Below, piece after piece: positions 596-61,206 of a stretch of 64,000 bases of DNA. The translations under genes were made by a program, and so were the position numbers. The DNA lies in assembly GCA_958419945.1 (NCBI GenBank), contig CATZIC010000001.1, forward strand, positions 9,482 to 73,481, read 5' to 3'. Under the pieces are notes generated by a model. It was not told where the DNA came from. It was given only the letters and a program-made list of their open reading frames with translations, and searched no databases. The number at the start of each line of letters is the position of its first letter. Position 1 is the stretch's first letter. This stretch comes from an uncultured Clostridia bacterium. GTDB lineage: Bacteria > Bacillota > Clostridia > Christensenellales > Borkfalkiaceae.

Positions 596-700
596 GAAGC
601 GCTACCGAGAGCGCCTTCGGCGCAATGAAGTCGCTTACGCTAATGAAAAATGAAGTCGCTGCGCTAATGAAGCACGCCATTCGGCGCATGAGCACAAGGA
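596..700 (+). repeat. Repeat module M4: tandem units of a short GC hairpin plus AATGAAG. A second copy lies at 51521-51595.
   Basis: GCGCCTTCGGCGC-AATGAAG, TCGCTTACGC-TAATGAA, AATGAAG-TCGCTGCGC-TAATGAAG, CGCCATTCGGCG-CATGAG. About 60 nt are nearly identical to 51533-51590. Confidence 0.8.
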
Positions 701-721
701 TTAGTAATTATTTAAAAAATG

Positions 722-816
722 TCGTTAACAGGCTTATAGCGGGATTTTAAGCTTTTTCACTCGTCCTTGCCTTGGCTTCTGGATTGCCACGGCACTCGCG
801 CGCCTCGCAATGACGG
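722..816 (+). repeat. Composite repeat: module M1 (..AACAGGCTTATAGC..) followed by module M2 (CTGGATTGCCAC-hairpin-TCGCAATGACGG)
   Basis: Same M1-spacer-M2 layout as 10747-10828, 51612-51699, 58438-58526, 60763-60845 and 60950-61034. Confidence 0.85.
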
Positions 817-992
817 TGGGGGTGCAACAAGTTTGTAGTGTGGAGTGTGGAGTTGAGGAATTTGGAGTTATTATATAAAACGTCACCGTTGGTAGTTTAT
901 GGGGCGGGCGGGAAGCGAAAGGTCGAGAAATTTGTGAGTTTGTGAGGGCTGTGGAAGTATAGGGGGTGGCGTTCTTTGTAATGCTCACGTTT

Positions 993-1030
993 CCTGGATT
1001 GCCGCGGCGCTACGCGCCTCGCAATAACGA
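993..1030 (+). repeat. Repeat module M2, solo copy
   Basis: CCTGGATTGCCGC-GGCGC-TAC-GCGCC-TCGCAATAACGA. Confidence 0.85.
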
Positions 1031-1056
1031 TAGCGGGTACAAAAGTATTATTAGAA

Positions 1057-1098
1057 ATATCCCCGCTCTTTTGCCAAACAGCAAAAGAGCGGGGATAT
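1057..1098. other. Perfect 18-bp stem with a 6-nt loop
   Basis: ATATCCCCGCTCTTTTGC-CAAACA-GCAAAAGAGCGGGGATAT. There is no clean T-run on either side. Confidence 0.8.
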
Positions 1099-1148
1099 AA
1101 AGGCTTTACAAAAAAACGTATCCCCCGCCGAAGAATTCGGAAGAGGAT

Positions 1149-1220
1149 ACAATCCCTCAGGCACATTCGTGCCAGCTCCCTTTACACAAAGGAGCCGAAT
1201 GCGGATTTAAAGATATTATA
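1149..1220 (+). repeat. Repeat module M3 (two hairpins, ends in GGATTTAAA)
   Basis: ..CCTCAGGCAC-ATTC-GTGCCAGCTCCCTTTACACAAAGGAGCC..GGATTTAAA. Homologous to 29790-29866 and 60698-60750. It abuts the rseP stop codon. Confidence 0.85.
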
Positions 1221-1225
1221 GTTAC

Positions 1226-2828: not shown

Positions 2829-3971
2829 TTATAAAAGTGCCGATAAGCGGCTTATAGCCCGACTTCTTGCCATTCGGTCGGTTTCCACAACCGAATTATA
2901 GTCGACGGTTTTTTCTATAGTAGAATCTAAAGCATCCGCCAAAAAACTGTAGATATCGGTAAACTTTATTTTGCCTTGCAAGAAGGCGTTTACAGCGATT
3001 TCGTTTGCGGCGGAAATGGCGCAGGGATAGTTGTTGCCTTTTATTATCGCCTGCTTTACAAGGGAAAAACAGGGGTATCTTTTATCGTCTATTTTCTCGA
3101 AAGTCAAGGACTTACCGCATAAATCCAAACGGTCAAGGCCTAAATTCAGCCTTTCGGGATAATTTAGCGCAAGGGCTATGGGGATTTTCATATCGGGAAC
3201 AGCCATTTGGGAAATTACGGAGCCGTCCTGAAATTCAACCATGGAATGTATTATGCTTTGGCGGTGCAAAAGCACGTCTATCTTGCTAACGTCGCAGTTA
3301 AAAAGCCATTTTGCTTCGGCGACTTCGAAACCCTTATTTACCATAGTGGCACAGTCAACCGTGATTTTTGCACCCATTTGCCAATTTGGATGGTTTAGCG
3401 CTTCTTTTGCGGTTACCTTATCGAGATTTTCCAAAGGAAGGTCCCGAAAAGCGCCGCCTGATGCGGTGATTATGAGTTTTTCAAAGGGCTTTTTTCTGTC
3501 AAGCCCGAGGGCCTGCCATATTGCGGAATGTTCGCTGTCGACGGGGATAAGGTTTACACCCTGCTTTTCGGCAAGAGCGGTAACAACCTCTCCACCCGCG
3601 ACCAAAGCCTCCTTGTTGGCGATTGCGACGTCGGTTTTGTTTTGGATTGCGGCAACCACCGCAGAAAAGCCCGCAAAGCCCATTACCGCTACAAACACCA
3701 AATCCGCATCACAAACTGCGGCGTGCATAATGGCGTTTTCACCGTAATAAAAGGATGTATTTTCCGGAACGGTTGTGACTTTCCTTGCGTATTCCGCATC
3801 GGATAAAACGGCGATATCGGGCTTATAGCGCCACATTTGCGCTTCGATCCCCTTATAATCACGGTTTGCCGCTATAGCCGTTATTTTAAATTTTTCGGGA
3901 AAGCGGTCTACGATTTCAAGCACTTGCTTGCCGATAGAACCGGTGCTTCCGATAAGCGCAATTTTCTTCAT
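2829..3971 (-). CDS. dxr: 1-deoxy-D-xylulose 5-phosphate reductoisomerase
   Basis: N-terminal GSTGSIG NADPH motif, typical length of 380 aa, and synteny cdsA-dxr-rseP. Confidence 0.93.
   Translation of the reverse strand: MKKIALIGSTGSIGKQVLEIVDRFPEKFKITAIAANRDYKGIEAQMWRYKPDIAVLSDAEYARKVTTVPENTSFYYGENAIMHAAVCDADLVFVAVMGFAGFSAVVAAIQNKTDVAIANKEALVAGGEVVTALAEKQGVNLIPVDSEHSAIWQALGLDRKKPFEKLIITASGGAFRDLPLENLDKVTAKEALNHPNWQMGAKITVDCATMVNKGFEVAEAKWLFNCDVSKIDVLLHRQSIIHSMVEFQDGSVISQMAVPDMKIPIALALNYPERLNLGLDRLDLCGKSLTFEKIDDKRYPCFSLVKQAIIKGNNYPCAISAANEIAVNAFLQGKIKFTDIYSFLADALDSTIEKTVDYNSVVETDRMARSRAISRLSALL
2839..2868 (+). repeat. Repeat module M1 copy lying inside the 3' end of dxr
   Basis: GCCGATAAGCGGCTTATAGCCCGACTTCTT. 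On the minus strand it encodes the last residues ..SRAISRLSALL of Dxr. Confidence 0.75.
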
Positions 3972-4032: not shown

Positions 4033-4863
4033 CTATCCTATAAACGAGAACACAAGGTATATAAACGACGCACAAATCATATTGCCGTCGATTCGGTCAA
4101 GCATTCCGCCGTGGCCGGGTAAAAGTTTGCCCATGTCTTTAATTTCAAGTTTGCGTTTTATCGCGCCTTCCACTAAATCACCGAGCTCTGTAAACAGTGC
4201 ACCGAAAAGACCTATCAATAAAAACAGAACGATTTCCGCACCGACGTTTTCGGTTACACTGCCTTTTGCGTGCACGAGCCAAAAAAGTATTGACACTGCC
4301 ATTCCGCCCAAAAGTCCGCCTATAGCACCGCTAATGCGCTTTTTTGGGCTTACCTTTTCGCAAAGTTTGGGACCTTTGAAAAGGGAGCCGACGATGTACG
4401 CCAAGGCGTCCGCCACCGGGGAAATTATGAATATAAGCATAAGTGCCACGAAGGAATTACTTTCAAGCGTGTTGCAAAGAAGCATTGGAATTAGTAGCCC
4501 CGTGGGGTAAAAGAGTGCGAAAAAGGCGCAAGAAATTTTTTCGATAGTAACCTTTTCGAACTCGAAAACCATTGCGAGAAGCAGCAGTATGCATGCGCAC
4601 ATACATACGACGGCAACCGCTTGCACGCCGAAAAACACGTATACCGGGGTTACGGTCAAAGAAAACGCAAATATTACGCATTTTTGAAAATTTGTAATCC
4701 TGTCCTTGAGCGCCCTTATCATTTCATACGAGCCGACGACGGCAAATGCATAAAACAAGATATTCATTAGCCGTATATCTACTAACTCTCTTAGCAGAAA
4801 CGAGCCGACTACGACCGCTATGATAAAAACGCTGGTACCAAGTCTTATCAAGAAATTTTTCAT
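4033..4863 (-). CDS. cdsA: Phosphatidate cytidylyltransferase
   Basis: C-terminal signature GDLVEGAIKRKLEIKDMGKLLPGHGGMLDRIDG and multiple TM segments. I prefer the ATG at 4863 with AGGTGA upstream over the TTG at 4878. Confidence 0.9.
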   Translation of the reverse strand: MKNFLIRLGTSVFIIAVVVGSFLLRELVDIRLMNILFYAFAVVGSYEMIRALKDRITNFQKCVIFAFSLTVTPVYVFFGVQAVAVVCMCACILLLLAMVFEFEKVTIEKISCAFFALFYPTGLLIPMLLCNTLESNSFVALMLIFIISPVADALAYIVGSLFKGPKLCEKVSPKKRISGAIGGLLGGMAVSILFWLVHAKGSVTENVGAEIVLFLLIGLFGALFTELGDLVEGAIKRKLEIKDMGKLLPGHGGMLDRIDGNMICASFIYLVFSFIG

Positions 4864-6945: not shown

Positions 6946-7010
6946 ATTTATCCTTATAAGTTACTATATCAGTGGGTTCGCCAAACGCCGAATTTTGTAG
7001 GCAAATTTAG

Positions 7011-7038
7011 CGATAACGGGCTTATAGCCCGACTTTTT
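7011..7038 (+). repeat. Repeat module M1
   Basis: CGATAACGGGCTTATAGCCCGACTTTTT. Confidence 0.85.
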
Positions 7039-7076
7039 AAAAAAGAGGAAACAGATATTGTGTTTCCTCTTTTTTG
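7039..7076 (-). terminator. Bidirectional rho-independent terminator downstream of tsf
   Basis: Stem AGAGGAAACA / TGTTTCCTCT flanked by an A-run and a T-run. Confidence 0.8.
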
Positions 7077-8766: not shown

Positions 8767-8883
8767 TCGTTTTTTAATCAAATTTCAAATTTTTGGCATT
8801 TAGTGTTGAGTGTGGATTGTAGTAGATTTGGTTTAACTGCCGTCACTAAGAACAAAGTGAGTAGATGATTTCCTGCCTTTGTG

Positions 8884-8968
8884 TCTGGATTGCCACGTCG
8901 CTTTGCGACTCGCAATGACGAAGTGAATGCACAAAATGTGCAAATAACGGGCTTATAGCCCTACTTTT
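8884..8968 (+). repeat. Repeat modules M2 (8884-8920) and M1 (8942-8968)
   Basis: TCTGGATTGCCAC-GTCGC-TTT-GCGAC-TCGCAATGACG, then AAATAACGGGCTTATAGCCCTACTTTT. M1 ends on the stop codon of the CE4 gene. Confidence 0.85.
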
Positions 8969-9800
8969 AGATACATTCCACCGTTTCGCCCGCAGGGGCT
9001 TTAAAGAGCTTTTTCTCCTTTTCAAACCAAACGGTAATGGCGCTTGGGTTGTAAACTTTTGTGGCGTCGACGGAAAATTCAAGGTTGTTAAATGCCGTTA
9101 CGTAGCGGTAGATTTCGCCGTTGGTGGCATAGTATACCTCCTTATTGTTGGCTACTTTTTTCACAAATTTTTCGATAAGAGACCAATTATCGTTTTCGTC
9201 GAACTCGTAACTATGCCCCCAAACGTAGAAAAGATAGGGTTCCCTTTCCTTTACAAAATCGTGTGGGAAGGTGTTTATAAACTTATCCGCCAAATCGAAA
9301 AGATCGGGGTCGGTGTGGTGGCAGGAGGGATTGAGTTCCAAAAAATCCTTAGGAATTTCAAAGCCGTGTGTCGAGACGGTGGTCCTTGCGTACTTTACGT
9401 TTATTAAAGAAAGATAGTCTTTGATGGTTTGTGAAAATGCGCCGTAAGGATAGGCAAAACCGCAGATTACTCTGTTAAAAATAGTTTCGAGTTCCCTTTT
9501 ATCACGCAAAACCTCGTCTAATCCACGCATAGCGTCGACCTTTGTCAAAAACAAATGTTTACTGCCGTGGGATGCGATTTCGTGATTACAATTACCGAAT
9601 AGTTCTATGGTGTCCTGCCTGTTCATTCTGCCGTGAGCGTTGTTTCCGAAAACGCCGGTATTTAGGTTGAAGGTGCATTTTAAACCGTTATCGTCAAACA
9701 GCTTCATGAGCCGTCTGTCGGCGGTAACACCGTCGTCGTAACTAAAGGTCAAAGCCTTTTCAAGCCCGTTTTCAAAACGCATAAAAACTTCGTTTTCCAT
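8967..9800 (-). CDS. Polysaccharide deacetylase (NodB homology, CE4 family)
   Basis: TFSYDDGVTADRRL and HEIASHGSKH motifs typical of CE4; no signal peptide. Confidence 0.8.
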   Translation of the reverse strand: MENEVFMRFENGLEKALTFSYDDGVTADRRLMKLFDDNGLKCTFNLNTGVFGNNAHGRMNRQDTIELFGNCNHEIASHGSKHLFLTKVDAMRGLDEVLRDKRELETIFNRVICGFAYPYGAFSQTIKDYLSLINVKYARTTVSTHGFEIPKDFLELNPSCHHTDPDLFDLADKFINTFPHDFVKEREPYLFYVWGHSYEFDENDNWSLIEKFVKKVANNKEVYYATNGEIYRYVTAFNNLEFSVDATKVYNPSAITVWFEKEKKLFKAPAGETVECI

Positions 9801-9998: not shown

Positions 9999-10748
9999 AT
10001 GAACGATATTACATACGTAGGTAAACATCTTAGAACTTACAACGTATTAAAGCACAGCCACGACAGTTGGGAACTTATTTATTGTACCGACGGTTCGGGC
10101 AGGTTTTCATTCGAGGACGGAAGCTATCTTGACTATAAAAAGGGAGATCTTGTGTTGATTCCGCCTGAAATCGTGCATGAAAACACGAGTGAAACAGGAT
10201 TTACCAATATCCACCTTAACGTAGCAAACGGCACTTTCGCCTACACTACGCCTGCACTCGTAACAGATGATAGCGAAAAGCACGTTTTGGCGACCTTTGA
10301 GGACGTGTTTTACTTTTATCATAGCAATCTTAACAAAAGGCAGCTTATACTTTCGGCGCTTGGCAACCTTATCGCTAACTACGTAATCGCCTTCCGTTCA
10401 AACAAGCCGCTATCTAAACTTGTGGAAGAAATCAAGTCGGACATAGTTAAAAACTTCCCCGACCCCGAATACAGCCTTGAAGACTTTATGCACTCATTCC
10501 CGTTTAGCTACGATTATTTAAGAAAGCTTTTTAAGAGCGAGCTTGGAATGACGCCGCATAGTTACCTAATAGAAATGCGCATGCAGACTGCGGAAAAACT
10601 TTTAGTGGATATGAAACACAACGAATACAATATAAGCATGATAGCCGAGATGTGCGGCTACGTTGAGCCGTTATACTTTTCGAGGGTGTTTAAAAAGCAT
10701 TTCGGGTGTTCGCCGAGCGTTTATCTGGAAAGGAAAAATCCGCAATAA
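9999..10748 (+). CDS. AraC-family transcriptional regulator with an N-terminal cupin sensor domain
   Basis: C-terminal dual HTH (..HSYLIEMRMQTAEKLL.. and ..MCGYVEPLYFSRVFKKHFGCSPSVY). Divergent from the CE4 gene and adjacent to the pectinolytic genes. Confidence 0.88.
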   Translation: MNDITYVGKHLRTYNVLKHSHDSWELIYCTDGSGRFSFEDGSYLDYKKGDLVLIPPEIVHENTSETGFTNIHLNVANGTFAYTTPALVTDDSEKHVLATFEDVFYFYHSNLNKRQLILSALGNLIANYVIAFRSNKPLSKLVEEIKSDIVKNFPDPEYSLEDFMHSFPFSYDYLRKLFKSELGMTPHSYLIEMRMQTAEKLLVDMKHNEYNISMIAEMCGYVEPLYFSRVFKKHFGCSPSVYLERKNPQ

Positions 10749-10828
10749 CAGAACTATAGCCCCACTTTTGAGAATTATCTCGCTTGAGTGTCCGGATTGC
10801 CACAGCAATAAGATTTCTCGCAATGACG
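10747..10828 (+). repeat. Composite repeat M1 (10747-10779) + M2 (10791-10828; central hairpin degenerate)
   Basis: AACAGAACTATAGCCCCACTTTTGAGAATTATC..TCCGGATTGCCAC..TCGCAATGACG. Confidence 0.85.
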
Positions 10829-10844
10829 AAAATAAATAGTTAAA

Positions 10845-17078: not shown

Positions 17079-17179
17079 TTTCTTCTCCTTTACAATATTT
17101 TTTTAATTGTTATAATCTTTCCGATTGCTTTTTGCCGTTTAAGGCATTTTAAACTTTCGGTAATTACCTTAAAACGTAT

Positions 17180-17206
17180 GATAACGGGCTTATAGCCCTA
17201 CTTTTG
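17180..17206 (+). repeat. Repeat module M1
   Basis: GATAACGGGCTTATAGCCCTACTTTTG followed by a GT-rich M5-like tail. Confidence 0.85.
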
Positions 17207-17227
17207 TGAGGTTTTGAGTTTTAAATA

Positions 17228-25723: not shown

Positions 25724-25830
25724 TTTTACCTCCATATATTTGCTATATTTTTCCGTTTTCACGGTTTAAGCCTTGATTGATTTTTAAGAGAATAGTGAAA
25801 TAACTATCGCCAAATAAATTAGTTTGGGCG

Positions 25831-25868
25831 TCTGGATTACCACGGAGCTTTAGCTCCTTTGAGTGACG
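25831..25868 (+). repeat. Repeat module M2 (diverged) between the permease and SBP genes
   Basis: TCTGGATTACCAC-GGAGCT-TT-AGCTCC-TTTGAGTGACG. Confidence 0.75.
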
Positions 25869-25876
25869 ATATAAAA

Positions 25877-26767
25877 TTACTCTTTGACGCCGCCCATATT
25901 TACGCCCTTTGCAAAGTATTTTTGAATAAAGGGGTATATGACTAAAATGGGGATTACCGCACATACGACGAGGGCGTAGATTGCGGAGTTTGGTGCGTAG
26001 TTTTTGCTCCACCCCGCCAAATACTCTGAGTCGGTTAGTTCGGTTAGCGTGTCGTGAATGAATACCTGCAGAGGAACTTCGTTACGGTTACTAATCATTT
26101 GGTTTGCCCAGTAGTAACCATTCCAACGGGAGATCGCAAAGAACAGTGCGACCGTTGCGATGGTGGATTTACTCATCGGTATGTAGACTTTAAATAAAAC
26201 CTGCATTTCGGTTGCGCCGTCCACCCTTGCGGCCTCTTCGATTTCGGAAGGTACGCCTTCGAAAGCGTTACGAAGAAGTATAATGTTCATAGCAGCCATA
26301 CCCATTGCGATAACTATGAGCCACTTATCGTCGGTAATACCTACGCCTTCAAAAACCTTTTGAGTTGCAAGGTAGTTTAAATACTGCGGTACGATACCTG
26401 CCGAAAACCACATAGTAAATACCAAGAAGAAGTTGAAGCCTTTTCTAAATAGCAATCTCTTTTTTGAAAGCGCATAACCGCCAAGGATTGCTACGCCAAG
26501 CGCCCAAATGGTACCGTAAAGGGTTAAAAACAGTGTGTTTGTGTAAGCGTTCCAGAACATGTTGTTACCAAACATGCTTGCAAAAGCTTCAAACTGTATG
26601 TCTTTTGGGAAAAGGATGACTTCGTTATACTCTACAGCATGTCTTCCGGATATTGCAGCCGAGATGGCGTACAAGAAGGGATACAGACAACAAATAGCGA
26701 ATATCGTAAGGAAAACGTAACTTATAATTTTAAAAATCAGTTCGGATACTTCCAGTTTTCTTTTCAT
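25877..26767 (-). CDS. Carbohydrate ABC transporter permease (LplC-like)
   Basis: EAA loop EAARVDGATEMQVLFKVYIPM; 6 TM segments. Confidence 0.9.
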   Translation of the reverse strand: MKRKLEVSELIFKIISYVFLTIFAICCLYPFLYAISAAISGRHAVEYNEVILFPKDIQFEAFASMFGNNMFWNAYTNTLFLTLYGTIWALGVAILGGYALSKKRLLFRKGFNFFLVFTMWFSAGIVPQYLNYLATQKVFEGVGITDDKWLIVIAMGMAAMNIILLRNAFEGVPSEIEEAARVDGATEMQVLFKVYIPMSKSTIATVALFFAISRWNGYYWANQMISNRNEVPLQVFIHDTLTELTDSEYLAGWSKNYAPNSAIYALVVCAVIPILVIYPFIQKYFAKGVNMGGVKE

Positions 26768-41683: not shown

Positions 41684-41700
41684 ATATAAAAAACACTCCG

Positions 41701-41872
41701 TTAACGGGCATATAGGCCCACTTTTTATTGAGATAAAAGAGAATAGAGAAAAGTGAAAAAAGTGGATTTAGGGTAATTATAGTAGTTTGCAAAGCGACAA
41801 ATCCACTCTTCGACACTCAAAACTCAAAAGGCGCCGTTTTTAGCCGATAACGGGCTTATAGCCTAACTTTTT
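41701..41872 (+). repeat. Composite repeat: M1 variant (41701-41727), inverted M5 pair (AGTGGATTT..AAATCCACT), M1 (41843-41872)
   Basis: TAACGGGCATATAGGCCCACTTTTT; GAGAATAGAGAAAAGTG..; GCCGATAACGGGCTTATAGCCTAACTTTTT. Confidence 0.8.
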
Positions 41873-41876
41873 ACAA

Positions 41877-43295
41877 TCAGCGGGAAGTTTCGAAGTCGCT
41901 GAGGCGTTTTTCAAAATCCTTGCCGCCAAAATAAGGGGCAAGGTATTTTTCGGTGTTTCGGCACATTTTAACGAAAAGGGTTTTTGCTTCCTCCGTAGTA
42001 AGAGTACCTAATAGCGGCTGATTTATAAATGCAAGAAAGATTTTTTCGAGATTTCTTTCCTTTATTCCTTCGTAGGTTAAATCTATATTAAGACAGTTTC
42101 TGTACACAAGGTTTAGTACCGCGGTCGGCAGCGGCTTTGCGGTTATCGGGCGTATTGAATCGTTTGAAAATACGCAGTTTGTTTCCACGATAGAGCCGAG
42201 CGGAAGCTGTGGCATTTGTCCGAGGTTCGGCATATTTACGTTCGTTACGACGGTGTTAAACCCAAGCAGTGCTTTGATAAGCGCAACCCCTTCTTCGTCC
42301 GAACTTTTAAGTTCGAACTTCTTTTTGCCTTCCGCCATTAAAATCGTTTCTTCGATTTGCTCTTTTTGGCGTGCTTCTCTAAAGTCCACCGTAGTCAAAC
42401 CGTACTTCCAATCGGTAACGGTTTTAGGTTCCTTTAAATACCAGGTGTTAGGCATGAATTCCACCAAATGCCGATCTCCCGCCGCCCCCAAAGCGCCGTA
42501 CTTACGGTATAGGTCCATTTTAACCTTGTTGCCGTACGCAAAAGTGTCATATTTAAATTGGAAGCGGTCGCCACGTTCGAAATAACCTTCCTCGTAATAC
42601 TTTTCCATAAATGCGGGAATAAGGCTTAAAAGGTCGATGTTTTGGTAGCGGGCTTCGGTTATCCAGGTAAAATGGTTGATGCCGGAAGCGTCGGTAAAAA
42701 TATCCTTTCTTGAAACGGAAATTCCTTTTACCTCTCTTAAAACAAGGGTTAAAAATTCCTGTGCATGGAAAACCTCATGACAGCAACCGAAGGCTTTAAT
42801 TTCCGGAAAAACGTCGTAAAGGGCTTTGGTGCAGATGCTCATGGGGTTGGTGTAGTTTATAACCCAGGCGTTTGGACAGATTTTCTTTATCTTCTTCGCA
42901 AATTCCTCATAGATAGGAACGGTTCGCATTGCCCTTAAAACTCCGCCCGGGCCTACGGTATCGCCTACCGATTGATATACGCCGTAGTTTTCGGGTTCGT
43001 GCACGTCGCTGCGCATTTCTTCGAAGTTGCCTGGAAGAATCGAGATTATTACAAAGTCCGCACCGGAAAGTGCGGTTTCCAAATTTTCGCTTACCGTGTA
43101 ATCAAAATGAGACACGCACGCCTTATCCGCATTTATATATGCGCCGATTTTTGCGTTTCTTTCCGCAGCCTCTCGGTCGATATCGTATAAGGCAATTTCA
43201 CCCGTCAAGCCGCTTGTAAGCGCCAAGTCGGACATAAATACCCTTGCCCAATTTTTGGAACCGCCGCCGATATAACAAATTTTTATTTTTTTCAT
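41877..43295 (-). CDS. GH4 family glycosidase (LplD-like alpha-galacturonidase)
   Basis: N-terminal Rossmann MKKIKICYIGGGSKNW; about 470 aa; GH4 pattern ..GCCHE..; pectin context. Confidence 0.78.
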   Translation of the reverse strand: MKKIKICYIGGGSKNWARVFMSDLALTSGLTGEIALYDIDREAAERNAKIGAYINADKACVSHFDYTVSENLETALSGADFVIISILPGNFEEMRSDVHEPENYGVYQSVGDTVGPGGVLRAMRTVPIYEEFAKKIKKICPNAWVINYTNPMSICTKALYDVFPEIKAFGCCHEVFHAQEFLTLVLREVKGISVSRKDIFTDASGINHFTWITEARYQNIDLLSLIPAFMEKYYEEGYFERGDRFQFKYDTFAYGNKVKMDLYRKYGALGAAGDRHLVEFMPNTWYLKEPKTVTDWKYGLTTVDFREARQKEQIEETILMAEGKKKFELKSSDEEGVALIKALLGFNTVVTNVNMPNLGQMPQLPLGSIVETNCVFSNDSIRPITAKPLPTAVLNLVYRNCLNIDLTYEGIKERNLEKIFLAFINQPLLGTLTTEEAKTLFVKMCRNTEKYLAPYFGGKDFEKRLSDFETSR

Positions 43296-43345: not shown

Positions 43346-45604
43346 TTAATTAGGGTTTTCGGGAATGTTATCACCGTTGCCGCCGTCGCCTGCGGTTTCT
43401 TCCGTAACGCTATCGTTTTCGTCGGCGGGTGTTTCGTCTTCGATGCTGTCTTCGGTTGTTTCGTTCTCGGAATCGACGCCTTGCATCCAATAATTTTCGC
43501 CGTACAGTGCGGTGTATTCGGAATTATCGTCCTCGTCTTCTTTTTTTGCTTCTTGACGGCCTTTTTTAACGATTACGAAAATTACAACGGCAACGGCTAC
43601 TATTGCCAAAACCACTATCCCGATTATAGCGGCAAGCCATTTCGTGGTGCCGAAAAGGTATTCCTTAAAAGTAGGCGTGCGTGGATTTACTACACCCGCA
43701 AAAATCACGTCGCCGTCCCCGAAAGCCACGAAAACCGCGGTCATTTGATCGAATTGCGGCAAAAACGCGCGGCTGTAGCTTGCCGTACTTTCGCTGTTGT
43801 AGGTTACGGGGTTGCCGTAAACGGCGCCGCTTTCAAGGTCGTTTAAAGTTACCTTTTTCTTTAAAACGTATCTGCCGTTTTTGTATTTTGTAAAGTCTTC
43901 CGCCCCGCAGGCGTAAATTGTAACCTGCCCTTCTCTTTTGCCGCCACGCCAATTTACGACCGAGGTTTTGCCGTCAAAGTATTTTGAGATTTCCGCCGCT
44001 TTTTCGGCTGTAGCGTCGGCGTCGTCAAAACTAAGGTTAAAAGAATATGAGCCGTCATTTGTCAAAGTTATATCCGTAATTACGATACCGCTGTTTGTGC
44101 CGTCGCTATAATAAAGCGAGGTCAAAAGTTGCCCGTTTGGGCCGATAACCGTCTTATAGGCCGACTTATCGGGATTGCCGATTGTTGAGTTATCAACTGA
44201 TTCGTTATGCGTATCGTGCTTTATTTTGCCGCTTCCGTTTAAAATTGCGTAGGAAGATTTTTCCTTTTCAGAGTACAATTTTTCGTCGCCGAGACGGTAT
44301 ATGAAAACCTCGTTATCGCCGTACATATTGCCGTAATTTACGGTGGAAGGGCCAAGGTCCGCTCCGATATAGCCGTTTTTTTCGTTTACCCTGTAAACGA
44401 CTATGCCCGATGAAGAAAGTCCGCCGTCTGCCAAACTGCTATCTTTAGAGCGGGCCTCTATCATAAAATATTCGCCTGTTTTATAGTAATCGTTTAAAAC
44501 GAGTTTTACCGCCTTAACCTTGCTATCCGAAGTTACGGGATATAAAGTGTAGGCGCCGCTTTTTTCGGCAGGGATAATAGCGCCGTCATTCAGCCAACCG
44601 AGACGATATCGTGTGTAAGTAAGGGGCATAGACGGTAAAATGCTTATTCCGCCCATAATGTCGAGTTCGCCGACGGGTTCGTCTTCTCCCGCATAGGGGT
44701 AATAGTCTGCAATGCCGGTATCGTGCATGAGTTCGTGGCATATTGCGCCGCAGGAAAACAGTTTTTCGTCGTTTTCGTCCGTTATACTGTGTTCCGTGAT
44801 TTTCGATGATCTGAAAACAGTGTAATTATCAGCCGCCTTTGCGTTTATATAACACGGAAGAAAATCAAGTGCGGATAGCTCGTAATCCCCGGGTATATAG
44901 TAATCGTTTTTAAGTTTTTGCTCGTTATAAACTGTCAGGTTGCTTCTGTGTTCCCATAATATTTCATCCCAACCGCCGCTACTTTGAGTGTCGCCAAAGA
45001 TTATTACAAGTCCGTCAACAAGTCCGTTATTATCGCCGTCGAGGTTTAGGGTTGTTTCGGAAAGCCCTTTTATAACGCTTCTTATTAATGACTGTTCACG
45101 CAAAAGTCGGTCTATATGCCGTTTAACGCCACTTTTTTCCGACGGACAAGGATTATTTTCCAGGTCGAAATATCTGTTGTCGTAACCGTTTTCATTTGCT
45201 TCTTTATAGCCATTGACGGTGGTTATATATTTTGGCATATAGTAACTTTGCGGTTCGTCTAAAACTATAGGCGTGTCGGTAAGAAGGGTAAAATCGGTAA
45301 GATATTTTCCGTTTGATGCCTCTAAAAAATAGTTTTTAACGCTTTGCGGAGAGAATTTTAAAGTCTTCATAAGAAGGTCGTTAAAATCTTCAGAAAAAGC
45401 ATCTTCAGTTTGGTCGGAAAATTTTACGGTTATAACGCCGTATTGTTTTGCGGCAGTTTCGGTGTCCGCATCCGCCTCGGCATATAACGGCTTTTCGGAG
45501 CGCCCCGATTTAGCCATCGCAAAAGCGGGAGCTATCGAAAGCGAACCCGCAAAAATTACCAAAAACAGAGAAAATATTGTAAAAAAACTTAAAAACTTTT
45601 TCAT
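43346..45604 (-). CDS. Secreted, membrane-anchored M6-like (immune inhibitor A-like) zinc metalloprotease
   Basis: Signal peptide, HELMH zinc motif, C-terminal TM helix followed by an acidic tail. Confidence 0.65.
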   Translation of the reverse strand: MKKFLSFFTIFSLFLVIFAGSLSIAPAFAMAKSGRSEKPLYAEADADTETAAKQYGVITVKFSDQTEDAFSEDFNDLLMKTLKFSPQSVKNYFLEASNGKYLTDFTLLTDTPIVLDEPQSYYMPKYITTVNGYKEANENGYDNRYFDLENNPCPSEKSGVKRHIDRLLREQSLIRSVIKGLSETTLNLDGDNNGLVDGLVIIFGDTQSSGGWDEILWEHRSNLTVYNEQKLKNDYYIPGDYELSALDFLPCYINAKAADNYTVFRSSKITEHSITDENDEKLFSCGAICHELMHDTGIADYYPYAGEDEPVGELDIMGGISILPSMPLTYTRYRLGWLNDGAIIPAEKSGAYTLYPVTSDSKVKAVKLVLNDYYKTGEYFMIEARSKDSSLADGGLSSSGIVVYRVNEKNGYIGADLGPSTVNYGNMYGDNEVFIYRLGDEKLYSEKEKSSYAILNGSGKIKHDTHNESVDNSTIGNPDKSAYKTVIGPNGQLLTSLYYSDGTNSGIVITDITLTNDGSYSFNLSFDDADATAEKAAEISKYFDGKTSVVNWRGGKREGQVTIYACGAEDFTKYKNGRYVLKKKVTLNDLESGAVYGNPVTYNSESTASYSRAFLPQFDQMTAVFVAFGDGDVIFAGVVNPRTPTFKEYLFGTTKWLAAIIGIVVLAIVAVAVVIFVIVKKGRQEAKKEDEDDNSEYTALYGENYWMQGVDSENETTEDSIEDETPADENDSVTEETAGDGGNGDNIPENPN

Positions 45605-45732: not shown

Positions 45733-47985
45733 ATGAAAAACAATTTATTTAAAAACTTTATTGCCTATCCGATTTATTTTTTAATCTTTTGCGCGCTTAA
45801 CTCGGTTTATGGTGGAGCGCCATTTTCCTGCGGGGCTTTTATCGGGCTTTTGTTTACGGGGGCGCCGCTTGCGCTTACGGCAGTTACCTTTCTTCTGTCA
45901 TTTTTGGTGTACAAAAGTTGGTTTTATATAATCTTCGGGGCGGTTTTCGGCGGGTTTCTCACGCTCGTATTTTTCTTATATAGGCGTAAACGAAAACAAA
46001 TCGGAGCTGAAATAATACTGTACGTATTTTTGGGACTTGTGCCTTACATACTTACGAACTTTCCCGAAAAAGCGGTAGAAAAGTTAGTCTATATGTCGAT
46101 TATCGCCGTATTTTCGATTGTGTCGCAGGTTGCGTTAAACGCAGTTTTGCGTAAAAAATTAAGCCGAAACGTTACCGCATACGATGGACTTTCGGTAATT
46201 GCATTTTTCGTTTTTACCTCGGTTGGGCTTATAAATCTTTTTTCGGTAGAAGTATACAGACCGCTTGCGGTGGCAGTTTTCGTACTACTATCGAGATATT
46301 ACAAAAATAACACTTCCTTAATAGTCGGGGCTTCCTGCGCGCTGCCGCTTGTTATAACCACGGGTAGCTACGAGTATCTTGCGGGCTTCTTGCTTTTTTG
46401 CGGGGTTTACGCTCTTTTAAGAAATTCCCCTTCGATTGCGATTTCCATAGGGCTTTGCCTTGCGGAACTTATTTGCGGGCTGTATCTTAAATTTTACGGC
46501 GAATACGGCTATATAAACGCCGTGCCGGTGCTTGCGGTGCTGTTTTTGACTTCCTTAATATCAAAAAGCAGAATGGAAAGCATCTCTCAAAAATACAATT
46601 TCGATCCAAACAGTGCCCTAATACGCTCGGTAATAAACCGAAACAGGCTGGATACTTCGGCAAGGCTTTACGATATTTCCAATGTATTTTTTCAGATGCA
46701 GGACGCATTTTCAAACCTTAAAAAATGCACGGAAAGCACCGACGTTTTGGTGGAAAAAATGGTGGACGAGGTGCTTTACAATATGTGTTCTAACTGCCAA
46801 CTCGAACAAAGGTGCATAAAAAGAAATGCGCCGAAATACGATTTGATTGAAAAAATAATCCGAATAGGCATCGCAAAAGGACGGGTTACAATCGTGGATC
46901 TACCACGGGATTTTACCGACGTTTGCGGGTACCCGAACAGTGCGATTTTTGAAGTTAACAGGCTTATAGGCTCATATTGTGAATATATTAAGAACGCGGA
47001 AAGCGGAGATAAGTCAAAGGAAATTTTAAGCCTGCAGTCCTCCGGCGTTGCCGGGGTTTTGAAGGGTCTTGCCTTTTCCCTTTCGAAAACTTCCCAAGAA
47101 AACAAGGCGGAAGAAAAACGAATTTTAAAAGCGCTTTCCAAAAAAGGGGTAAAGTGCGACGGGGCGCTTTGCTTCGGCGAGGGAAAGGACACTGAAATCG
47201 AAGTGATATTTCCATCCGAATACTTTGCGGAATCGGACGTCGGCGGAATTTTGTCCGAGGCCTTTAATACGAGGCTGGCGGTTACTCGGGCGGAAGCGGT
47301 TGCAAACGGCGTAACCGCAGTTACCCTTAAATTTGCGCCCGCACTCGATGCGGTTTTCGGAATCGGCAAGGTTACGAAAACCAACTCCCCTGCGTCCGGC
47401 GACTGCCATTCCCTTGTAAAAATAGACGAAAGCAATTTTTTGGTTGCCCTATCCGACGGCATGGGCAGCGGAGAAGTTGCCCAAAAGACTTCGGAAACGG
47501 CGCTAAACCTTATAGAATCGCTGTATAAGGCGGGGCTTGACTCGGAATTTATTCTTACGCTTGTAAACAAACTGCTTGCAATTTCCATTGACGACAATTT
47601 TTCGGCAATAGACATTGCCCTTGTCAATTTAAGAGAGGGAAACACCGCGTTTATAAAGATCGGTTCCCCTTACGGCTTTATCCTTTCCGATTCCGGAATA
47701 AGGTTCATCGAAGGCTCTTCCCTTCCCCTTGGAATACTTGACGAACTTCACCCAACTACCGCTTCCGCCCCCCTTGTGGCGGGAGACGTTATAATGATGG
47801 TTTCCGACGGGGTTACGGACGCATTTTCCTCTTCGGGGGATTTGGTGGACTTTTTAAAATCCGCGCCGCTACATAACCCGCAGGAACTTGCGGACCTGGT
47901 GGTTAATAAAGCCCTTGAACTATCTAACGGCAACGCCGCGGACGATATGACTGCGGTTTGCGTAAGACTTGTTGACGCCGCATAG
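45733..47985 (+). CDS. spoIIE: Stage II sporulation protein E (membrane PP2C phosphatase)
   Basis: About 10 N-terminal TM segments, a central domain, and a C-terminal PP2C (..ALSDGMGSGEVA.., ..VSDGVTD..); 750 aa. Confidence 0.88.
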   Translation: MKNNLFKNFIAYPIYFLIFCALNSVYGGAPFSCGAFIGLLFTGAPLALTAVTFLLSFLVYKSWFYIIFGAVFGGFLTLVFFLYRRKRKQIGAEIILYVFLGLVPYILTNFPEKAVEKLVYMSIIAVFSIVSQVALNAVLRKKLSRNVTAYDGLSVIAFFVFTSVGLINLFSVEVYRPLAVAVFVLLSRYYKNNTSLIVGASCALPLVITTGSYEYLAGFLLFCGVYALLRNSPSIAISIGLCLAELICGLYLKFYGEYGYINAVPVLAVLFLTSLISKSRMESISQKYNFDPNSALIRSVINRNRLDTSARLYDISNVFFQMQDAFSNLKKCTESTDVLVEKMVDEVLYNMCSNCQLEQRCIKRNAPKYDLIEKIIRIGIAKGRVTIVDLPRDFTDVCGYPNSAIFEVNRLIGSYCEYIKNAESGDKSKEILSLQSSGVAGVLKGLAFSLSKTSQENKAEEKRILKALSKKGVKCDGALCFGEGKDTEIEVIFPSEYFAESDVGGILSEAFNTRLAVTRAEAVANGVTAVTLKFAPALDAVFGIGKVTKTNSPASGDCHSLVKIDESNFLVALSDGMGSGEVAQKTSETALNLIESLYKAGLDSEFILTLVNKLLAISIDDNFSAIDIALVNLREGNTAFIKIGSPYGFILSDSGIRFIEGSSLPLGILDELHPTTASAPLVAGDVIMMVSDGVTDAFSSSGDLVDFLKSAPLHNPQELADLVVNKALELSNGNAADDMTAVCVRLVDAA

Positions 47986-48026: not shown

Positions 48027-48050
48027 GCCGCCGAACTTGGGCGGTTTTTT
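48027..48050 (+). terminator. Terminator of spoIIE
   Basis: GCCGCC..GGCGG stem followed by TTTTTT. Confidence 0.7.
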
Positions 48051-48053
48051 AAA

Positions 48054-48080
48054 AAAATGGGGCTATAGGTCGATTAATGA
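48054..48080 (-). repeat. Repeat module M1, inverted orientation
   Basis: The reverse complement reads ATTAATCGACCTATAGCCCCATTTTT. Confidence 0.7.
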
Positions 48081-48253
48081 CTGTTTTTGAGTTTTGCATG
48101 CGCTGCATATTTCGCTTTTTTGAAAAATTTTTCCCTCATTTTAATTCTTAATTCACCGCGCGCACACTTTTATTACACATTGTTTTGTTAAACCACACAC
48201 TTATTTTTTAATATACTATTAGGAAAGCTTTTTGTAAAAGGAGGTGCTACGTT

Positions 48254-51509: not shown

Positions 51510-51520
51510 CCTTAAGAAAT

Positions 51521-51723
51521 AAATACGCTAACGCTAATGAAGAAATGAAGTCGCTAACGCTAATGAAGTACGCCTCACTAGCGCATTGTGGATTTAGATT
51601 ATTATAAAAATGACGATAACGGGCTTATAGCCCCACTTTTGACAATTATCCTGCTTGGGCTTCTGGATTGCCACGTCGCTTTGCGACTCGCAATGACGGA
51701 GTGGCTTGACACTCTCCAAACTC
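51521..51723 (+). repeat. Composite repeat M4 (51521-51595) + M1 (51612-51650) + M2 (51661-51699) + inverted M5
   Basis: Co-linear with 596-870. M2 reads TTCTGGATTGCCAC-GTCGC-TTT-GCGAC-TCGCAATGACGG. Confidence 0.9.
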
Positions 51724-58354: not shown

Positions 58355-58368
58355 TTAAAATTTAGTCA

Positions 58369-58405
58369 AATCACCGCCGCTCGATTGAACGGCGGTGATT
58401 TTTTT
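58369..58405 (+). terminator. Terminator of the LacI-family gene
   Basis: AATCACCGCC..GGCGGTGATT stem followed by TTTTTTT. Confidence 0.8.
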
Positions 58406-58407
58406 GA

Positions 58408-58630
58408 AGTCAAGTGAAGAGTGAATAGAGAAAAGTGGCAATAACAGGCTTATAGCCCCACTTTCGAGAGCTTTTCCCACTTGGACTTCTGGATTGCCAC
58501 GTCGCTAAAGCGACTCGCAATGACGGAAGAAATAGACTGCCTTGCGATGACGATACAGAAGGTTTTTGTACAACCTTAATGACGGATCGCGAAGGGATAA
58601 ATCCACTCTCAACTATCCAAACTCCGCACT
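58408..58630 (+). repeat. Composite repeat: M5 end, M1 (58438-58466), M2 (58487-58526), two further hairpin+ATGACG units, inverted M5 end
   Basis: ..GTGAAGAGTGAATAGAGAAAAGTGGCAATAACAGGCTTATAGCCCCAC..CTGGATTGCCAC-GTCGC-TAAA-GCGAC-TCGCAATGACGG..GCGATGACGA..GGTT-TTTGTAC-AACC-TTAATGACGG..AAATCCACTCTCAAC. Confidence 0.88.
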
Positions 58631-58633
58631 ATA

Positions 58634-60472
58634 TTAAGCGTTTACTTTGTAGAAATCTACTTTTCCGCTTTCGATGTCGTAAACGATTTTGTAAGTGCCT
58701 GCAGTGCTGCATTTGAAATTAGATCCGCTTGCGGGGGTGAATAATGCGTTTGTGTCGCCGCTAGTTCCGATTACGGAAGCGCCGAGATAATCGCCGTAGC
58801 CGGTCGTTTCGCCCTTGGGATGTCTTTCCATTCCGAATTCAACCGCCGTATCAGCAGTAACCGTTAAAGTGTATTCATAGGTTTTTCCGTCTTCGGAAAT
58901 ACCGAATTTCCACTGAGCGTCGAAATTATGTGCCCAAGAGTTTATGCCGGAACCTTTGATATAGATATCCAAAGTATCCGCGGAATCGGTATGTTCGGTT
59001 ATGGTTATAATCTTGGAATAGCTGTCGAAAGAAATATCGTAAACGCCTGCGGTCAACACTTTAATATTGTTGTTAGTAGCGCTTGCCGCCGAGAAAGCAG
59101 GGTTCTTTCTAAGATAATTGTACTGATAATCGGTGCGTGTAGCCGTCCAATTCGGGGTTTCGCCCTTATTAAAGCCACGAAGTAAAAGTTCTGCGCCTTC
59201 ATTTAAGGTAACGCTTTCAATAATATAAATGCCGGAGCCTTCTTGGGTTTCGGTAAGAATGAAGTTTGCGGGCGTATTTATAAAGTCGCCGTAGTTACCG
59301 CCGTTAAAGTTGCCGTCGATATAGTAGTCGTTTGCCGCCATTTCGGCACTTTCGTACGTAACGGTAAGTTTTTGCGTATCTTTATTATAGGTAAATGTGT
59401 AGTTTCCGCTTGCTTTTGCGGTCATATTGCCTGCTTCGCCACCAACGAAAGCTTTACTTGCTTCGTCAAGGTTGCCTGCCTTTACGTAAATGCTTCCTAC
59501 GGAAGTAGTGGATTCGCCGTTTTCAATTACGGTGTTAGTAGAGGTGAACAGGAATTCTTCCCCTTCTTTAAGATAGACGGAAAGGGTGTAGTTTGAGCCG
59601 CTTTGCGCCATCTTGGTTGCGTTATTGTACATATCCGCCCAACCGGTAATGCCTGCGCCTTTAATGTAAAGGTCGGTTACGGTAACGGAATCGTTTAATA
59701 CGTCGCCGTTACGTACCCAGGTGATACTGTCGTAGGTACCCATGTTGTAGGTTTCCTTGTTTTCTTCTGTGTAAGTAGGCGCTTCGGTGTTGTAATAATC
59801 CTCGTTGGGATAGGTCTTTAAAGTAAAGGTGTAATTGCCGGCGTGTTCAACTTTGATATTTGCGGTCTTTGCTGCGTCGGTATAAGGACTTGCGTTACTT
59901 GTAAATACTTCGGTTCCGTCCGCAAGTTTGGTTTCGAGAAGATATCCGAATCCCCTTTGATTCTGCCAACTGCTGTTGATAGCGAATTGGAATTCGTCGT
60001 CCTTTTTAAGGTCCATGGTTATGGTATATTCGTTTTTATCGGCAGCTTTTTTTAGTTTGAAGCTGTCGTTTATAACCTTACCCCAGTCGGACGAGAATAA
60101 AAGTTCGCTGGTGCCGGAACCCACAACGTAATAGCTACGGACGTCCTCGGTATATAGTGTAAATCCTGCGTAAACGGACGTGTCTTCTTTTATTTTGGTT
60201 GTAAAATCGAAACGGTGGTTTTTGGAAGGAACGGCAAACCAATCTACGAATTCGTAGCCGCCGTCTTTTGTCGGGGTATAGCTTGTAAGGGTTTCACCCT
60301 CTTTTACCTTTTCGGTTTTTAAAACCGTCATCTCGGAAACTTTAGAGGTCCCCGTTGCATCATACCACGTAACCGTGTATTCCTTTTCAAGCTGAGGCGG
60401 AGTACACGCAAACGCACCAAAGCATAACACCATTACGGCGCATACTAAGAAAGCCGTTAAAATTTTCTTCAT
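58634..60472 (-). CDS. Surface lipoprotein with about four internal beta-sandwich (CBM/X25-like) repeats; putative starch/maltodextrin binding
   Basis: MKKILTAFLVCAVMVLCFGAFAC|T lipobox at the ATG at 60472, with its own promoter at 60561-60589. Recurrent blocks ..Y(Y/I)(V/K/D)G.. ..W.. ..Y(T/E)(I/L/F)T... The context is a maltodextrin locus. Confidence 0.7.
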   Translation of the reverse strand: MKKILTAFLVCAVMVLCFGAFACTPPQLEKEYTVTWYDATGTSKVSEMTVLKTEKVKEGETLTSYTPTKDGGYEFVDWFAVPSKNHRFDFTTKIKEDTSVYAGFTLYTEDVRSYYVVGSGTSELLFSSDWGKVINDSFKLKKAADKNEYTITMDLKKDDEFQFAINSSWQNQRGFGYLLETKLADGTEVFTSNASPYTDAAKTANIKVEHAGNYTFTLKTYPNEDYYNTEAPTYTEENKETYNMGTYDSITWVRNGDVLNDSVTVTDLYIKGAGITGWADMYNNATKMAQSGSNYTLSVYLKEGEEFLFTSTNTVIENGESTTSVGSIYVKAGNLDEASKAFVGGEAGNMTAKASGNYTFTYNKDTQKLTVTYESAEMAANDYYIDGNFNGGNYGDFINTPANFILTETQEGSGIYIIESVTLNEGAELLLRGFNKGETPNWTATRTDYQYNYLRKNPAFSAASATNNNIKVLTAGVYDISFDSYSKIITITEHTDSADTLDIYIKGSGINSWAHNFDAQWKFGISEDGKTYEYTLTVTADTAVEFGMERHPKGETTGYGDYLGASVIGTSGDTNALFTPASGSNFKCSTAGTYKIVYDIESGKVDFYKVNA

Positions 60473-60560
60473 GCTTAATTTTTCCTCCCGGAATTTTTTT
60501 GTTTTTTCGTAAGGCGGCTTGTTGGTACCTAACTTTGCCGCCGACTTACTTAACAAGTTA

Positions 60561-60589
60561 AGCATAACACAGCAAACCGCCTTTGTCAA
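60561..60589 (-). promoter_or_regulatory. Promoter of the lipoprotein gene
   Basis: Minus strand reads TTGACA, a 17-nt spacer, then TATGCT. Confidence 0.6.
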
Positions 60590-60624
60590 TACCCTTTTAA
60601 AAAATTTTTCAAAGAAATTTTTTG

Positions 60625-61206
60625 TGAAGTTTGGAGAGTGGAGCGTTGAGAGTGAAGTTGTGGATTTAAAGTAATTATTGAAGTTCCCTTCGTGAACGGA
60701 CAATCCTTCAGGCTCTTTCGTTTCAGCTCCATTTGCTACATATGGAGCCGATGAAAAAGTGGCAATAATCGACTTATACGCCCACTTTTGAGAATTATTC
60801 CGCTTTTGTTTCTGGATTGCCACGTCGCCCGACTCGCAATGACGGTTAAAATCGGCACATAACAGTAGCTTATGGGATGGATGGGAAAGGAAAAGTTTGG
60901 CGCATGTTTGCTTGTTGGGGCTAAAGATATTTAGCCGCCGTTTTTGTGTGATAATCGGCTTATAGCCACACTTTTGAGAATTATCACGCTTGGGTTTCTG
61001 GATTGCCACGGAGCTTACGCTCCTCGCAATGACGAAAGGGATAAATTACCTCGCAACGACAATTTGGACAGGTTTTTAAGCAAGCTTAATGACGAAATAA
61101 TAATTTAAATCCGTTTCTTTTCACTTTTCAATCTTCACTTTTCCCTTCTCCGGCGAAACATTTACCCGCCATATGTGTCGATAACGGGCTTATAGCCCCA
61201 CTTTTT
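60625..61206 (+). repeat. Largest repeat array: M5 end, M3, M1, M2, about 100 nt of unique sequence, M1, M2, two hairpin+ATGACG units, inverted M5 end, then a solo M1 (61179-61206)
   Basis: M2 copies at 60811-60845 and 60997-61034; M1 copies at 60763-60800, 60950-60986 and 61179-61206. The ends ..GAGAGTGAAGTTGTGGATTTAAAG and TTTAAATCCGTTTCTTTTCACTTTTC.. are inverted relative to each other. Confidence 0.88.

Follow-up and report, generated by a model that had tools for sequence, protein, structure and literature searches.

Intergenic repeats of an uncultured Clostridia bacterium form a mosaic of separate parts that includes a dRS3-like hairpin and a conserved DNA motif

The intergenic repeats of a 64,000-nucleotide stretch of the genome of an uncultured Clostridia bacterium (GenBank assembly GCA_958419945.1, contig CATZIC010000001.1, positions 9,482 to 73,481 of the forward strand) were analyzed. 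This whole stretch is referred to below as the window, and all positions are counted from its first letter. The host belongs to a sporulating lineage, and the window encodes SpoIIE together with the gene cluster rpsB-tsf-pyrH-frr-uppS-cdsA-dxr-rseP and numerous genes for pectin and uronate utilisation. Around three-quarters of the open reading frames (ORFs) taken as genes lie on the minus strand. Exact matches to the window proteins were found only in metagenome-type assemblies, and the nearest named relatives were metagenome-assembled genomes (MAGs) designated "Clostridia bacterium".

An earlier reading of the same sequence, the original prediction, had described one family of shuffled, hairpin-bearing modules (M1 to M5) that fills much of the non-coding DNA. 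The 16 M1, ten M2 and three M3 copies it listed, as well as the M4 arrays and the M5 ends, were all recovered in place, where none would be expected by chance. The repeat load had been overstated, since a repeat partner detectable by BLAST was present for 1209 of 6072 intergenic nucleotides (20%), and repeats occurred in half (14) of the 28 spacers that measure 40 nt or more. With linked modules counted once, 16 repeat loci were assigned to the plus strand and two to the minus strand (two-sided binomial p ~0.001, by our own arithmetic). The listed copies sit in spacers, with the M1 copy at 2829..2873 overlapping the 3' end of dxr. Five copies at 60.7-61.0 kb are covered by a mechanically called ORF (58634-61009), yet they were judged to be spacer because a promoter (TTGACA-17-TATGCT, at 60588) and a ribosome-binding site (GGAGG, near 60490) put the gene start near 60470; the called ORF is over-extended by ~540 nt into the repeat array.

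Module M2 was searched for with the pattern GGATTRCCRC-N9-17-TYKSARTRACG, which gave ten matches in the window, all on the plus strand and at the positions described earlier, compared to none expected. Pattern and profile together placed these dRS3/REP-like units at 766..829, 988..1039, 8872..8934, 10779..10840, 25820..25881 (with a diverged outer stem), 29861..29916, 51650..51711, 58476..58538, 60800..60857 (with the inner loop deleted) and 60986..61047. Each is a two-tier hairpin of 36-40 nt with a conserved foot, CTGG-ATTGCC...GCAAT-GACGG, and the alignment of the ten copies reads CTGG-ATTGC-CAC-(5-bp stem with a 3-4 nt loop)-TC-GCAAT-GACGG. The copies are unpaired, and the inverted pairs typical of bacterial interspersed mosaic elements (BIMEs) and of doublets of repetitive extragenic palindromes (REPs), known as REPINs, were not seen in the window. 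With regard to strand, an inference of the replication leading strand from GC skew at four-fold degenerate sites was dropped, as it contradicted the gene-strand bias. At these sites the plus strand is G-rich for genes of both strands (+0.07 and +0.31) despite approximately three-quarters of the genes lying on the minus strand, which is unusual in Bacillota.

The outer stem of M2 is nearly invariant, while the inner stem alternates between GTCGC/GCGAC, GGAGC/GCTCC and GGCGC/GCGCC. In the inner-stem covariation analysis, eight cells were altered on both sides, and the observed score was reached by none of 500 shuffles. Predicted folds of M2 and M3 also beat those of shuffled sequences (z of -2 to -3.2, the latter value for the RNA fold of the M2 copy at 58476..58538). 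In a regular 67-bp array of a Limnohabitans MAG (L079, 6-305), M2-type hairpins and an inverted variant alternate. The outer stem of the variant reads ATCGC/GCGAT instead of ATTGC/GCAAT, and this covariation shows that the outer stem, too, is structural. Rfam returned no family match to the modules: there were no hits at the gathering threshold across the window and nothing relevant at E-values up to 10 in 58.3-61.45 kb, and in 18 M2-bearing loci the sole match was to tRNA.

Module M1 behaved differently. Its core, GGGCTTATAGCCC, was matched ten times in the window with at most one mismatch, compared to 0.06 expected, and with an nhmmer profile of the window copies all 16 listed sites were recovered, at E-values from 1e-7 to 1e-13. 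Fourteen of them are on the plus strand: 712..752 and 17168..17212 (both intergenic), 2829..2873 (over the last 15 codons and the stop of dxr, where it encodes ARSRAISRLSALL), 7000..7042 (in the tsf-pyrH spacer), 8931..8974 and 41840..41878 (each abutting a stop codon), 10732..10778 (its TAA being the stop codon of an AraC-type gene), 29907..29953, 41689..41730 (5 nt upstream of a start codon), 51603..51649 (the best consensus match), 58429..58474, 60752..60798, 60948..60984 and 61168..61213. The two inverted copies lie at 27937..27978, a variant with the core CCGACCTATAGGCTC, and at 48048..48090. The conserved architecture spans 36 nt, AAAA-N5-CGATAACGGGCTTATAGCCC-N-ACTTTT, in which about three helical turns separate the A-tract from the T-tract. 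Exact 18-mers were found at five of ~23 sites, the strands were used 20 versus 4 times, and the density was ~1 per 3 kb.

The mini-hairpin GGGCT-TAT-AGCCC, originally placed at the core of M1, did not stand up to comparative analysis. Among 28 copies no pair covaried in either the mini-hairpin or the outer stem flanked by A and T, the variants broke the pairing, no core pair was changed on both sides, and the covariation measures equalled those of shuffled alignments. Fold energies were likewise near those of shuffles (z of -0.8 to -1.9). M1 carries a T-run, and three copies were flagged as terminator-like by a simple scan; a structured hairpin or terminator was rejected, as covariation was absent. 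Neither did M1 fit a promoter, a catabolite-responsive element (cre), or a Spo0A or DnaA box on inspection.

Members of the clade with as little as 63% Dxr identity still carry M1; in the tsf-pyrH spacer, for instance, it is conserved in the relatives L165, L166, L168 and L169. Its 18-nt core was also found in 43 metagenome loci, of which ~33 share the full flanks; none of these loci otherwise resembles the window and none carries M2. The metagenome copies, which point either way, are next to canonical terminators or no more than ~30 nt from a stop codon. In the window, most M1 copies are directed against their neighbouring genes, with the T-run on the non-transcribed strand. M1 was not found in viral contigs and, judged by these sequence comparisons, appears to be restricted to the Clostridia clade of the window. 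Shared proteins offered too few orthologs to establish how the metagenome contigs with M1 are related to the window. Two contigs of the M1-rich metagenome ERZ870021 (L141, 9-155; L143, 4901-5051) contain a spaced or tandem 28-nt unit, TTCACGCGACCAGCGGGAGCAATTCACG, which may belong to a CRISPR-like array or to a different family of repeats.

Contrary to what had been supposed, M1-like sequence is also found beyond the spacers, since seven further matches fell within coding sequence. Counting the copy at the end of dxr, two such sites each lie in dxr, spoIIE and a gene for an M6-type protease, and one each in cdsA and an altronate dehydratase gene (in the latter at 31716..31753, plus strand, found by the profile), in either orientation relative to the gene. 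Coding segments were picked on the window alone and then ranked by identity at third codon positions among relatives, which reach down to 37-63% protein identity. Six of the seven ranked segments fell in the top 3% of the sliding intervals compared, five in the top 1%, and three ranked first. The N-terminal dxr segment (codons 44-57, QMWRYKPDIAVL; 3802..3838, plus strand, antisense to the gene) ranked 1 of 371 in six genomes and the C-terminal one (2829..2873) about 9 of 371; the cdsA segment (KKRISGAIGGLLGG, sense strand; 4307..4347, minus strand) ranked 1-3 of 309. In the protease gene, the segment at 45099..45139 (minus strand) ranked 1 of 769 between two proteins only 37% identical, and the weakly conserved one at 44139..44167 (plus strand) ranked 82 of 769. 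Those in spoIIE ranked 5 of 738 (46079..46116, minus strand) and 7 of 738 (46948..46974, plus strand). A rough Fisher combination that allows for overlapping intervals gave p ~5e-5, again by our own arithmetic.

From a GTT/ATT codon onwards, the DNA of the cdsA motif is nearly identical in six genomes, with two exceptions at third positions. The protein motifs encoded by the dxr and cdsA segments are free of gaps and conserved throughout the clade, and we take them, from comparison with Dxr and CdsA of Escherichia coli, to be ancestral. The segments are therefore not insertions, and M1 as an in-frame insertion in the manner of Rickettsia palindromic elements (RPEs) was rejected. These comparisons suggest that selection keeps M1 both in spacers and inside genes. 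Because M1 is conserved, indifferent to orientation and tolerated in coding regions, a recognition site in double-stranded DNA is favoured over a mobile hairpin or an RNA element; it would be read by an architectural or bending protein, or would be of the uptake-signal type. By analogy, uptake signals and architectural-protein sites are the two known categories that appear to behave like M1.

The remaining modules are less regular. M3 is a double hairpin, identified as a repeat family at 1149..1215 (fold z of -2.9 on the plus and -3.0 on the minus strand) and 29790..29856, and by reading of the sequence in a diverged copy at 60698..60750, all on the plus strand. M4 forms plus-strand arrays of units made of a short hairpin and AATGAAG, at 596..700, where the copy number of a 25-nt unit varies between strains, and at 51518..51595; the units resemble M2 right halves that have been truncated. 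M5 comprises purine-rich ends in both orientations and M6 is a GGATTTAAAGTAATTAT motif. M5 and M6 form imperfect inverted ends, 70-92% complementary, around three composites only. The first (58403..58625) runs from an M5/M6 end through M1, M2 and small hairpins to an inverted M6/M5 end (arms 58413-58426 and 58601-58614, 79% complementary). The second (60624..61160; arms at 60624 and 61122, 82%) holds M3, M1, M2, M1 and M2 between such ends and lies upstream of the promoter in a divergent spacer. The third (41735..41826; arms at 41758 and 41799, 92%) consists of M5/M6 ends alone (GTGGATTT...AAATCCAC), flanked by two M1 copies.

Comparison of orthologous spacers revealed module differences among strains as well as among species. 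The contigs L001 (window 35733-51682) and L002 (45261-51682), which come from two other samples, are 99.8-99.9% identical to the window and show no spacer differences. Both independent short-read contigs end at the same base, 51682, inside the M2 copy at 51665 (51650..51711). As a multi-copy repeat breaks assembly, this shared break is indirect evidence that M2 is multi-copy genome-wide. In another strain, L164, coding sequence differs from the window by 0.33%. One 214-nt unit made of a module and M2, lying between the M2 copies at 781 and 996 and ending at 988..1039, is absent from this strain, as is one 25-nt M4 unit, and the M2 copy at 781 (766..829) has a different, fully compensated inner stem. 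Moreover, 34 differences are packed into the 145 nt between M2 and M3 (1004-1148). Compensating changes among these fall in both arms of a terminator hairpin (1057-1098), and the stretch resembles a swapped module.

In the related species L165, in which gene order is the same and Dxr is 91% identical, the M2 copy upstream of rpsB (8872..8934) is replaced by M4-like units of hairpin and AATGAAG. The M1 and M2 copies after the AraC-type gene (M2 at 10779..10840) are likewise replaced by M4-like units, and the flanks around both replacements are 85-97% identical. No target-site duplication was visible in these comparisons, the L164 deletion ends beside M2, and L165 offered no clean empty sites, its orthologous sites holding other modules. 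Turnover is concentrated at the modules, with the changes clustering at M2, as described for the arrays of neisserial intergenic mosaic elements (NIMEs).

M2 was found well beyond the Clostridia, in phage contigs as well as in other bacteria. A scan of one genome per species, in which counts are lower bounds and ~10 matches would arise by chance according to our arithmetic, yielded at least 147 copies in at least 118 loci from more than ten bacterial phyla. Hosts among the matches listed include Alpha-, Beta- and Gammaproteobacteria, Elusimicrobia, Treponema, Fibrobacter, Bacteroidota, Dehalococcoidia, Saccharibacteria, Melainabacteria, Omnitrophota and Oscillospiraceae. Among the same listed matches there were at least 105 distinct inner sequences, and outside the fixed pattern just 1-2 flanking bases were conserved. 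The inner part nevertheless stabilises the fold (mean of -10.2 kcal/mol versus -7.7 kcal/mol with the inner part shuffled, p = 3.5e-13, among the matches listed). One strand folded better in 98 of 110 listed copies, which suggests that the active form of M2 may be single-stranded.

Proteobacterial units among the matches listed usually form inverted pairs ~20 nt apart; likewise among listed matches, convergent spacers outnumbered divergent ones (22 versus 8) and orientation relative to transcription showed no preference. In 81 viral-contig loci, M2 lies between structural genes. Pairs also occur on replicons of Novosphingobium, Methylosinus, Methylocystis, Methylobacterium and Halomonas annotated as plasmids, with no feature annotated over the pairs. 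These distributions do not agree with one homologous family, since M2 occurs in more than ten phyla without M1, and M1 in other metagenome contigs without M2. The mosaic is built from separate parts.

A literature search for M2 by sequence string and by pseudo-peptide gave no match, and a search on its sister motif led to the dRS3 element of Neisseria. dRS3 (ATTCCC-N8-GGGAAT) is present in ~700 copies per meningococcal genome, makes up NIMEs together with more than 100 families of 30-160 bp repeat sequence (RS) modules that it flanks, serves the filamentous phage Nf/MDA as its integration target, has been proposed as a recombinase site that drives array turnover, and was reported in 2007 as unseen outside Neisseria (PMC1797815, PMC3898611). 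In the sequence upstream of pilE of N. gonorrhoeae, dRS3 units read CGTC-ATTCCCGCGAAAGCGGGAAT-CTAG and CCTGG-ATTCCCACTTTCGTGGGAAT-GACGGG (PMC7593972). M2, first reported as of unrecognised kind, matches dRS3 in its flanks and arm ends (CTGG-ATT...AAT-GACGG) and in having short inverted arms around a variable centre. Like dRS3, it flanks other short modules in spacer arrays, and the arrays occupy syntenic positions with unit number and content varying between strains and species. In addition, dRS3-type units co-occur with M2 in four loci from other phyla. M2 differs in its arms (ATTGCC/(C)GCAAT instead of ATTCCC/GGGAAT), in its centre of 13-19 nt with a stem of its own, compared to 8 nt in dRS3, and in its hosts, here a Clostridia bacterium and, for the family, many phyla.

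M2 also shares traits with REPs, BIMEs and REPINs, being an extragenic imperfect palindrome (REPs measure 21-65 nt) in many copies at gene 3' ends, with a copy number known here as ten per 64 kb; in other phyla it forms inverted pairs, and it takes part in mosaics with other motifs. The canonical REP foot is a 5' GT[AG]G tetranucleotide (PMC6006769, PMC2817692). It is not present in M2, whose two strands carry CTGG and CGTC at the foot, and no RAYT gene is known for M2. Whereas each REP family is confined to one species or genus, the foot of M2 hardly changes from phylum to phylum. A canonical REP/RAYT identity was rejected, given the unsuited foot and a supplement (that of PMC6006769) holding no such sequence. 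As far as sequence can tell, M2 would thus resemble dRS3 and REP elements while being a strict member of neither. The position of M1 beside M2 recalls the layout of BIME-1 (RIP) units, which carry a binding site for the IHF protein between REPs. The likeness to BOX, REP or miniature inverted-repeat transposable elements (MITEs) noted at the outset holds in so far as the repeats are modular, shuffled, partly hairpin-forming and variable between strains and species; it does not extend to a single homologous family.

Taking the observed anatomy, covariation, distributions, strain and species turnover and synonymous-site constraint together, we propose a NIME/BIME-type mosaic in the spacers, with at least three unrelated components, in which a dRS3-like M2 is the organising element, M1 a separate signal and M3-M6 filler, an account that stands about an even chance of being right. 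M2 would be read as a single-stranded hairpin by a site-specific recombinase or transposase acting in trans and encoded elsewhere. The enzyme may follow the model of Neisseria dRS3 and the integrase of the Nf/MDA phage or, alternatively, may be an HUH enzyme acting as on REPs. M2 copies would then be hot spots for the insertion, deletion and swapping of neighbouring modules. M1 would be a non-mobile 36-nt motif, conserved in sequence and with a reader that recognises double-stranded DNA, and M3-M6 would be "RS-like" filler, in which M5 and M6 form imperfect terminal inverted repeats (TIRs) in three places. We infer single-strand recognition, the type of enzyme and the reader of M1 from these patterns.

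Several results weigh against this proposal. In the window, M2 never occurs in inverted pairs and all ten copies point in the same direction, which the model leaves unexplained, and a test for the leading strand of replication gave an ambiguous result. Canonical dRS3 (ATTCCC-N8-GGGAAT, at most one mismatch) has no match in the window. No gene could be tied to M2, as no protein family recurred when ORFs within 600-1500 bp were clustered in 118 genome and 80 viral loci, and no candidate for its enzyme was found among the scanned window ORFs. Repeated gene conversion by spacer copies, rather than function, could be the source of the M1 constraint in coding sequence, and the repeat counts cover one 64-kb window and short relatives, not a whole genome.

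With regard to the enzyme, the window ORFs scanned contained neither a RAYT/TnpA(REP) gene nor, as first reported, any transposase; this holds for 42 ORFs assessed by Pfam, NCBIfam or precomputed Pfam calls, ten of them without any family match and with a few short ORFs left out. After neighbour-ORF clustering in the 198 loci with M2, an enzyme encoded in cis was rejected, a suspected GIY-YIG link included. The ORFs that recurred were only generic methyltransferases, ABC ATPases and phage structural genes, and neither a phage nor an IS110-type integrase gene was found near M2 in these loci.

Two further observations count against the mosaic account and favour a single family of non-autonomous transposons, that is, MITEs with M5/M6 as TIRs, M1-M3 internal or nested, and composites moved by a transposase encoded elsewhere. 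These are the imperfect inverted ends that bound three composites (79%, 82% and 92%) and a recurring M1-linker-M2 unit of ~90 nt (77-96) in which the linker is conserved. Some modules are therefore copied together, and the MITE-type reading stays alive for part of the system. The 214-nt unit present in one strain and absent from another would fit as well, and the lack of a transposase nearby is what it would lead one to expect. The composites recall Correia elements in their inverted ends, and the modular, shuffled layout recalls BOX of Streptococcus pneumoniae, which is likened by layout only. However, the ends are weak, most M1 and M2 copies lack them, and target-site duplications were not observed. 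M1 and M2 can each be found alone and follow one another in either order, the organisms that carry them differ, and the phylogenetic distributions of the modules are independent. The copies are 60-89% alike, which speaks against a recent burst, and M1 positions are conserved over a deep clade and even in constrained coding sequence. As an explanation for the whole system, MITEs thus seem unlikely to us.

Less likely again is that the modules act as RNA, as 3'-UTR (untranslated region) hairpins that end transcription or shield mRNA 3' ends from exonucleases. REPs in E. coli have been shown to protect mRNA 3' ends or to stop transcription. In line with such a role, the repeats lie at gene ends with convergent spacers favoured, M2 and M3 fold better than shuffled sequences, the M2 stem covaries with one strand folding better, three M1 copies look like terminators, and M2 is found between phage structural genes. 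However, M2 lacks a U-tract, the M1 hairpin shows neither covariation nor unusual stability, and M1 in the window mostly opposes the adjacent genes, its T-run being on the non-transcribed strand. Canonical terminators often adjoin the modules anyway, and an RNA role would leave unexplained both the identical foot across phyla and the antisense M1 sites in genes.

For M1 only, a DNA uptake signal can be considered, comparable to the DNA uptake sequence (DUS) of Neisseria or the uptake signal sequence (USS) of Pasteurellaceae and spread by biased uptake and recombination; this seems improbable. Uptake specificity is, to our knowledge, not known in Bacillota, which counts against it. Further, M1 is longer than DUS and USS, more degenerate (five exact 18-mers in ~23 sites) and, at ~1 per 3 kb, less dense, and its strand bias of 20 to 4 in the window is no trait of either. 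This contrasts with several features that such a signal would share: over-representation in coding sequence as well as in spacers, where it is written into genes via codon choice; retention at orthologous positions throughout the clade, under synonymous constraint; presence, whichever way it points, at stop codons and terminators; a long, asymmetric consensus in which the A- and T-tracts are spaced by roughly three helical turns; and no occurrence found in viral contigs. The known comparators behave alike (PMC3898611).

Other features of the window were noted in passing. The minus-strand ORF at 14601-17078 (825 aa) contains three tandem 510-nt units, 82-85% identical, that correspond to 170-aa protein repeats; the protein looks secreted and lies beside a 1220-aa PelX-like pectate lyase. 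Two genes for MalK-type ABC ATPases (21290-22348 and 34323-35423) are 70-75% identical in DNA over ~270 nt and are paralogs in two sugar-uptake operons. From ~61.85 kb to 64000, a single plus-strand ORF of at least 717 aa runs off the window and encodes an apparent sensor kinase/receiver hybrid, and the minus-strand ORFs at 62449-62913 and 63233-63985 are probably spurious.

Returning to the mosaic account, its two main components may be joined in a wider, tentative conclusion that we regard as rather doubtful in its entirety: the CTGG-ATT...AAT-GACGG hairpin would be a pan-bacterial, phage-borne signal for recombination or insertion with a widely shared enzyme, and M1 would be a DNA signal maintained by selection in one uncultured Clostridia clade, the first of its sort in Bacillota. 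M1 would then be a site of the uptake type or for an architectural protein, whose effect suffices to fix synonymous codons in essential genes. Should the kinship with dRS3 be true, a supposed peculiarity of Neisseria would turn out to be part of a class of repeats shared by numerous phyla and phages, and the hairpins would mark sites of genome recombination and of DNA gain and loss and could lead to the enzyme. In practice, M2 breaks short-read assemblies and creates spurious ORFs. As for M1, part of what appears to be a junk repeat would be a conserved DNA signal that overrides codon choice in dxr, cdsA, spoIIE and the protease gene, and it may offer a testable handle on chromosome biology in a never-cultured Clostridia lineage of the gut or rumen.

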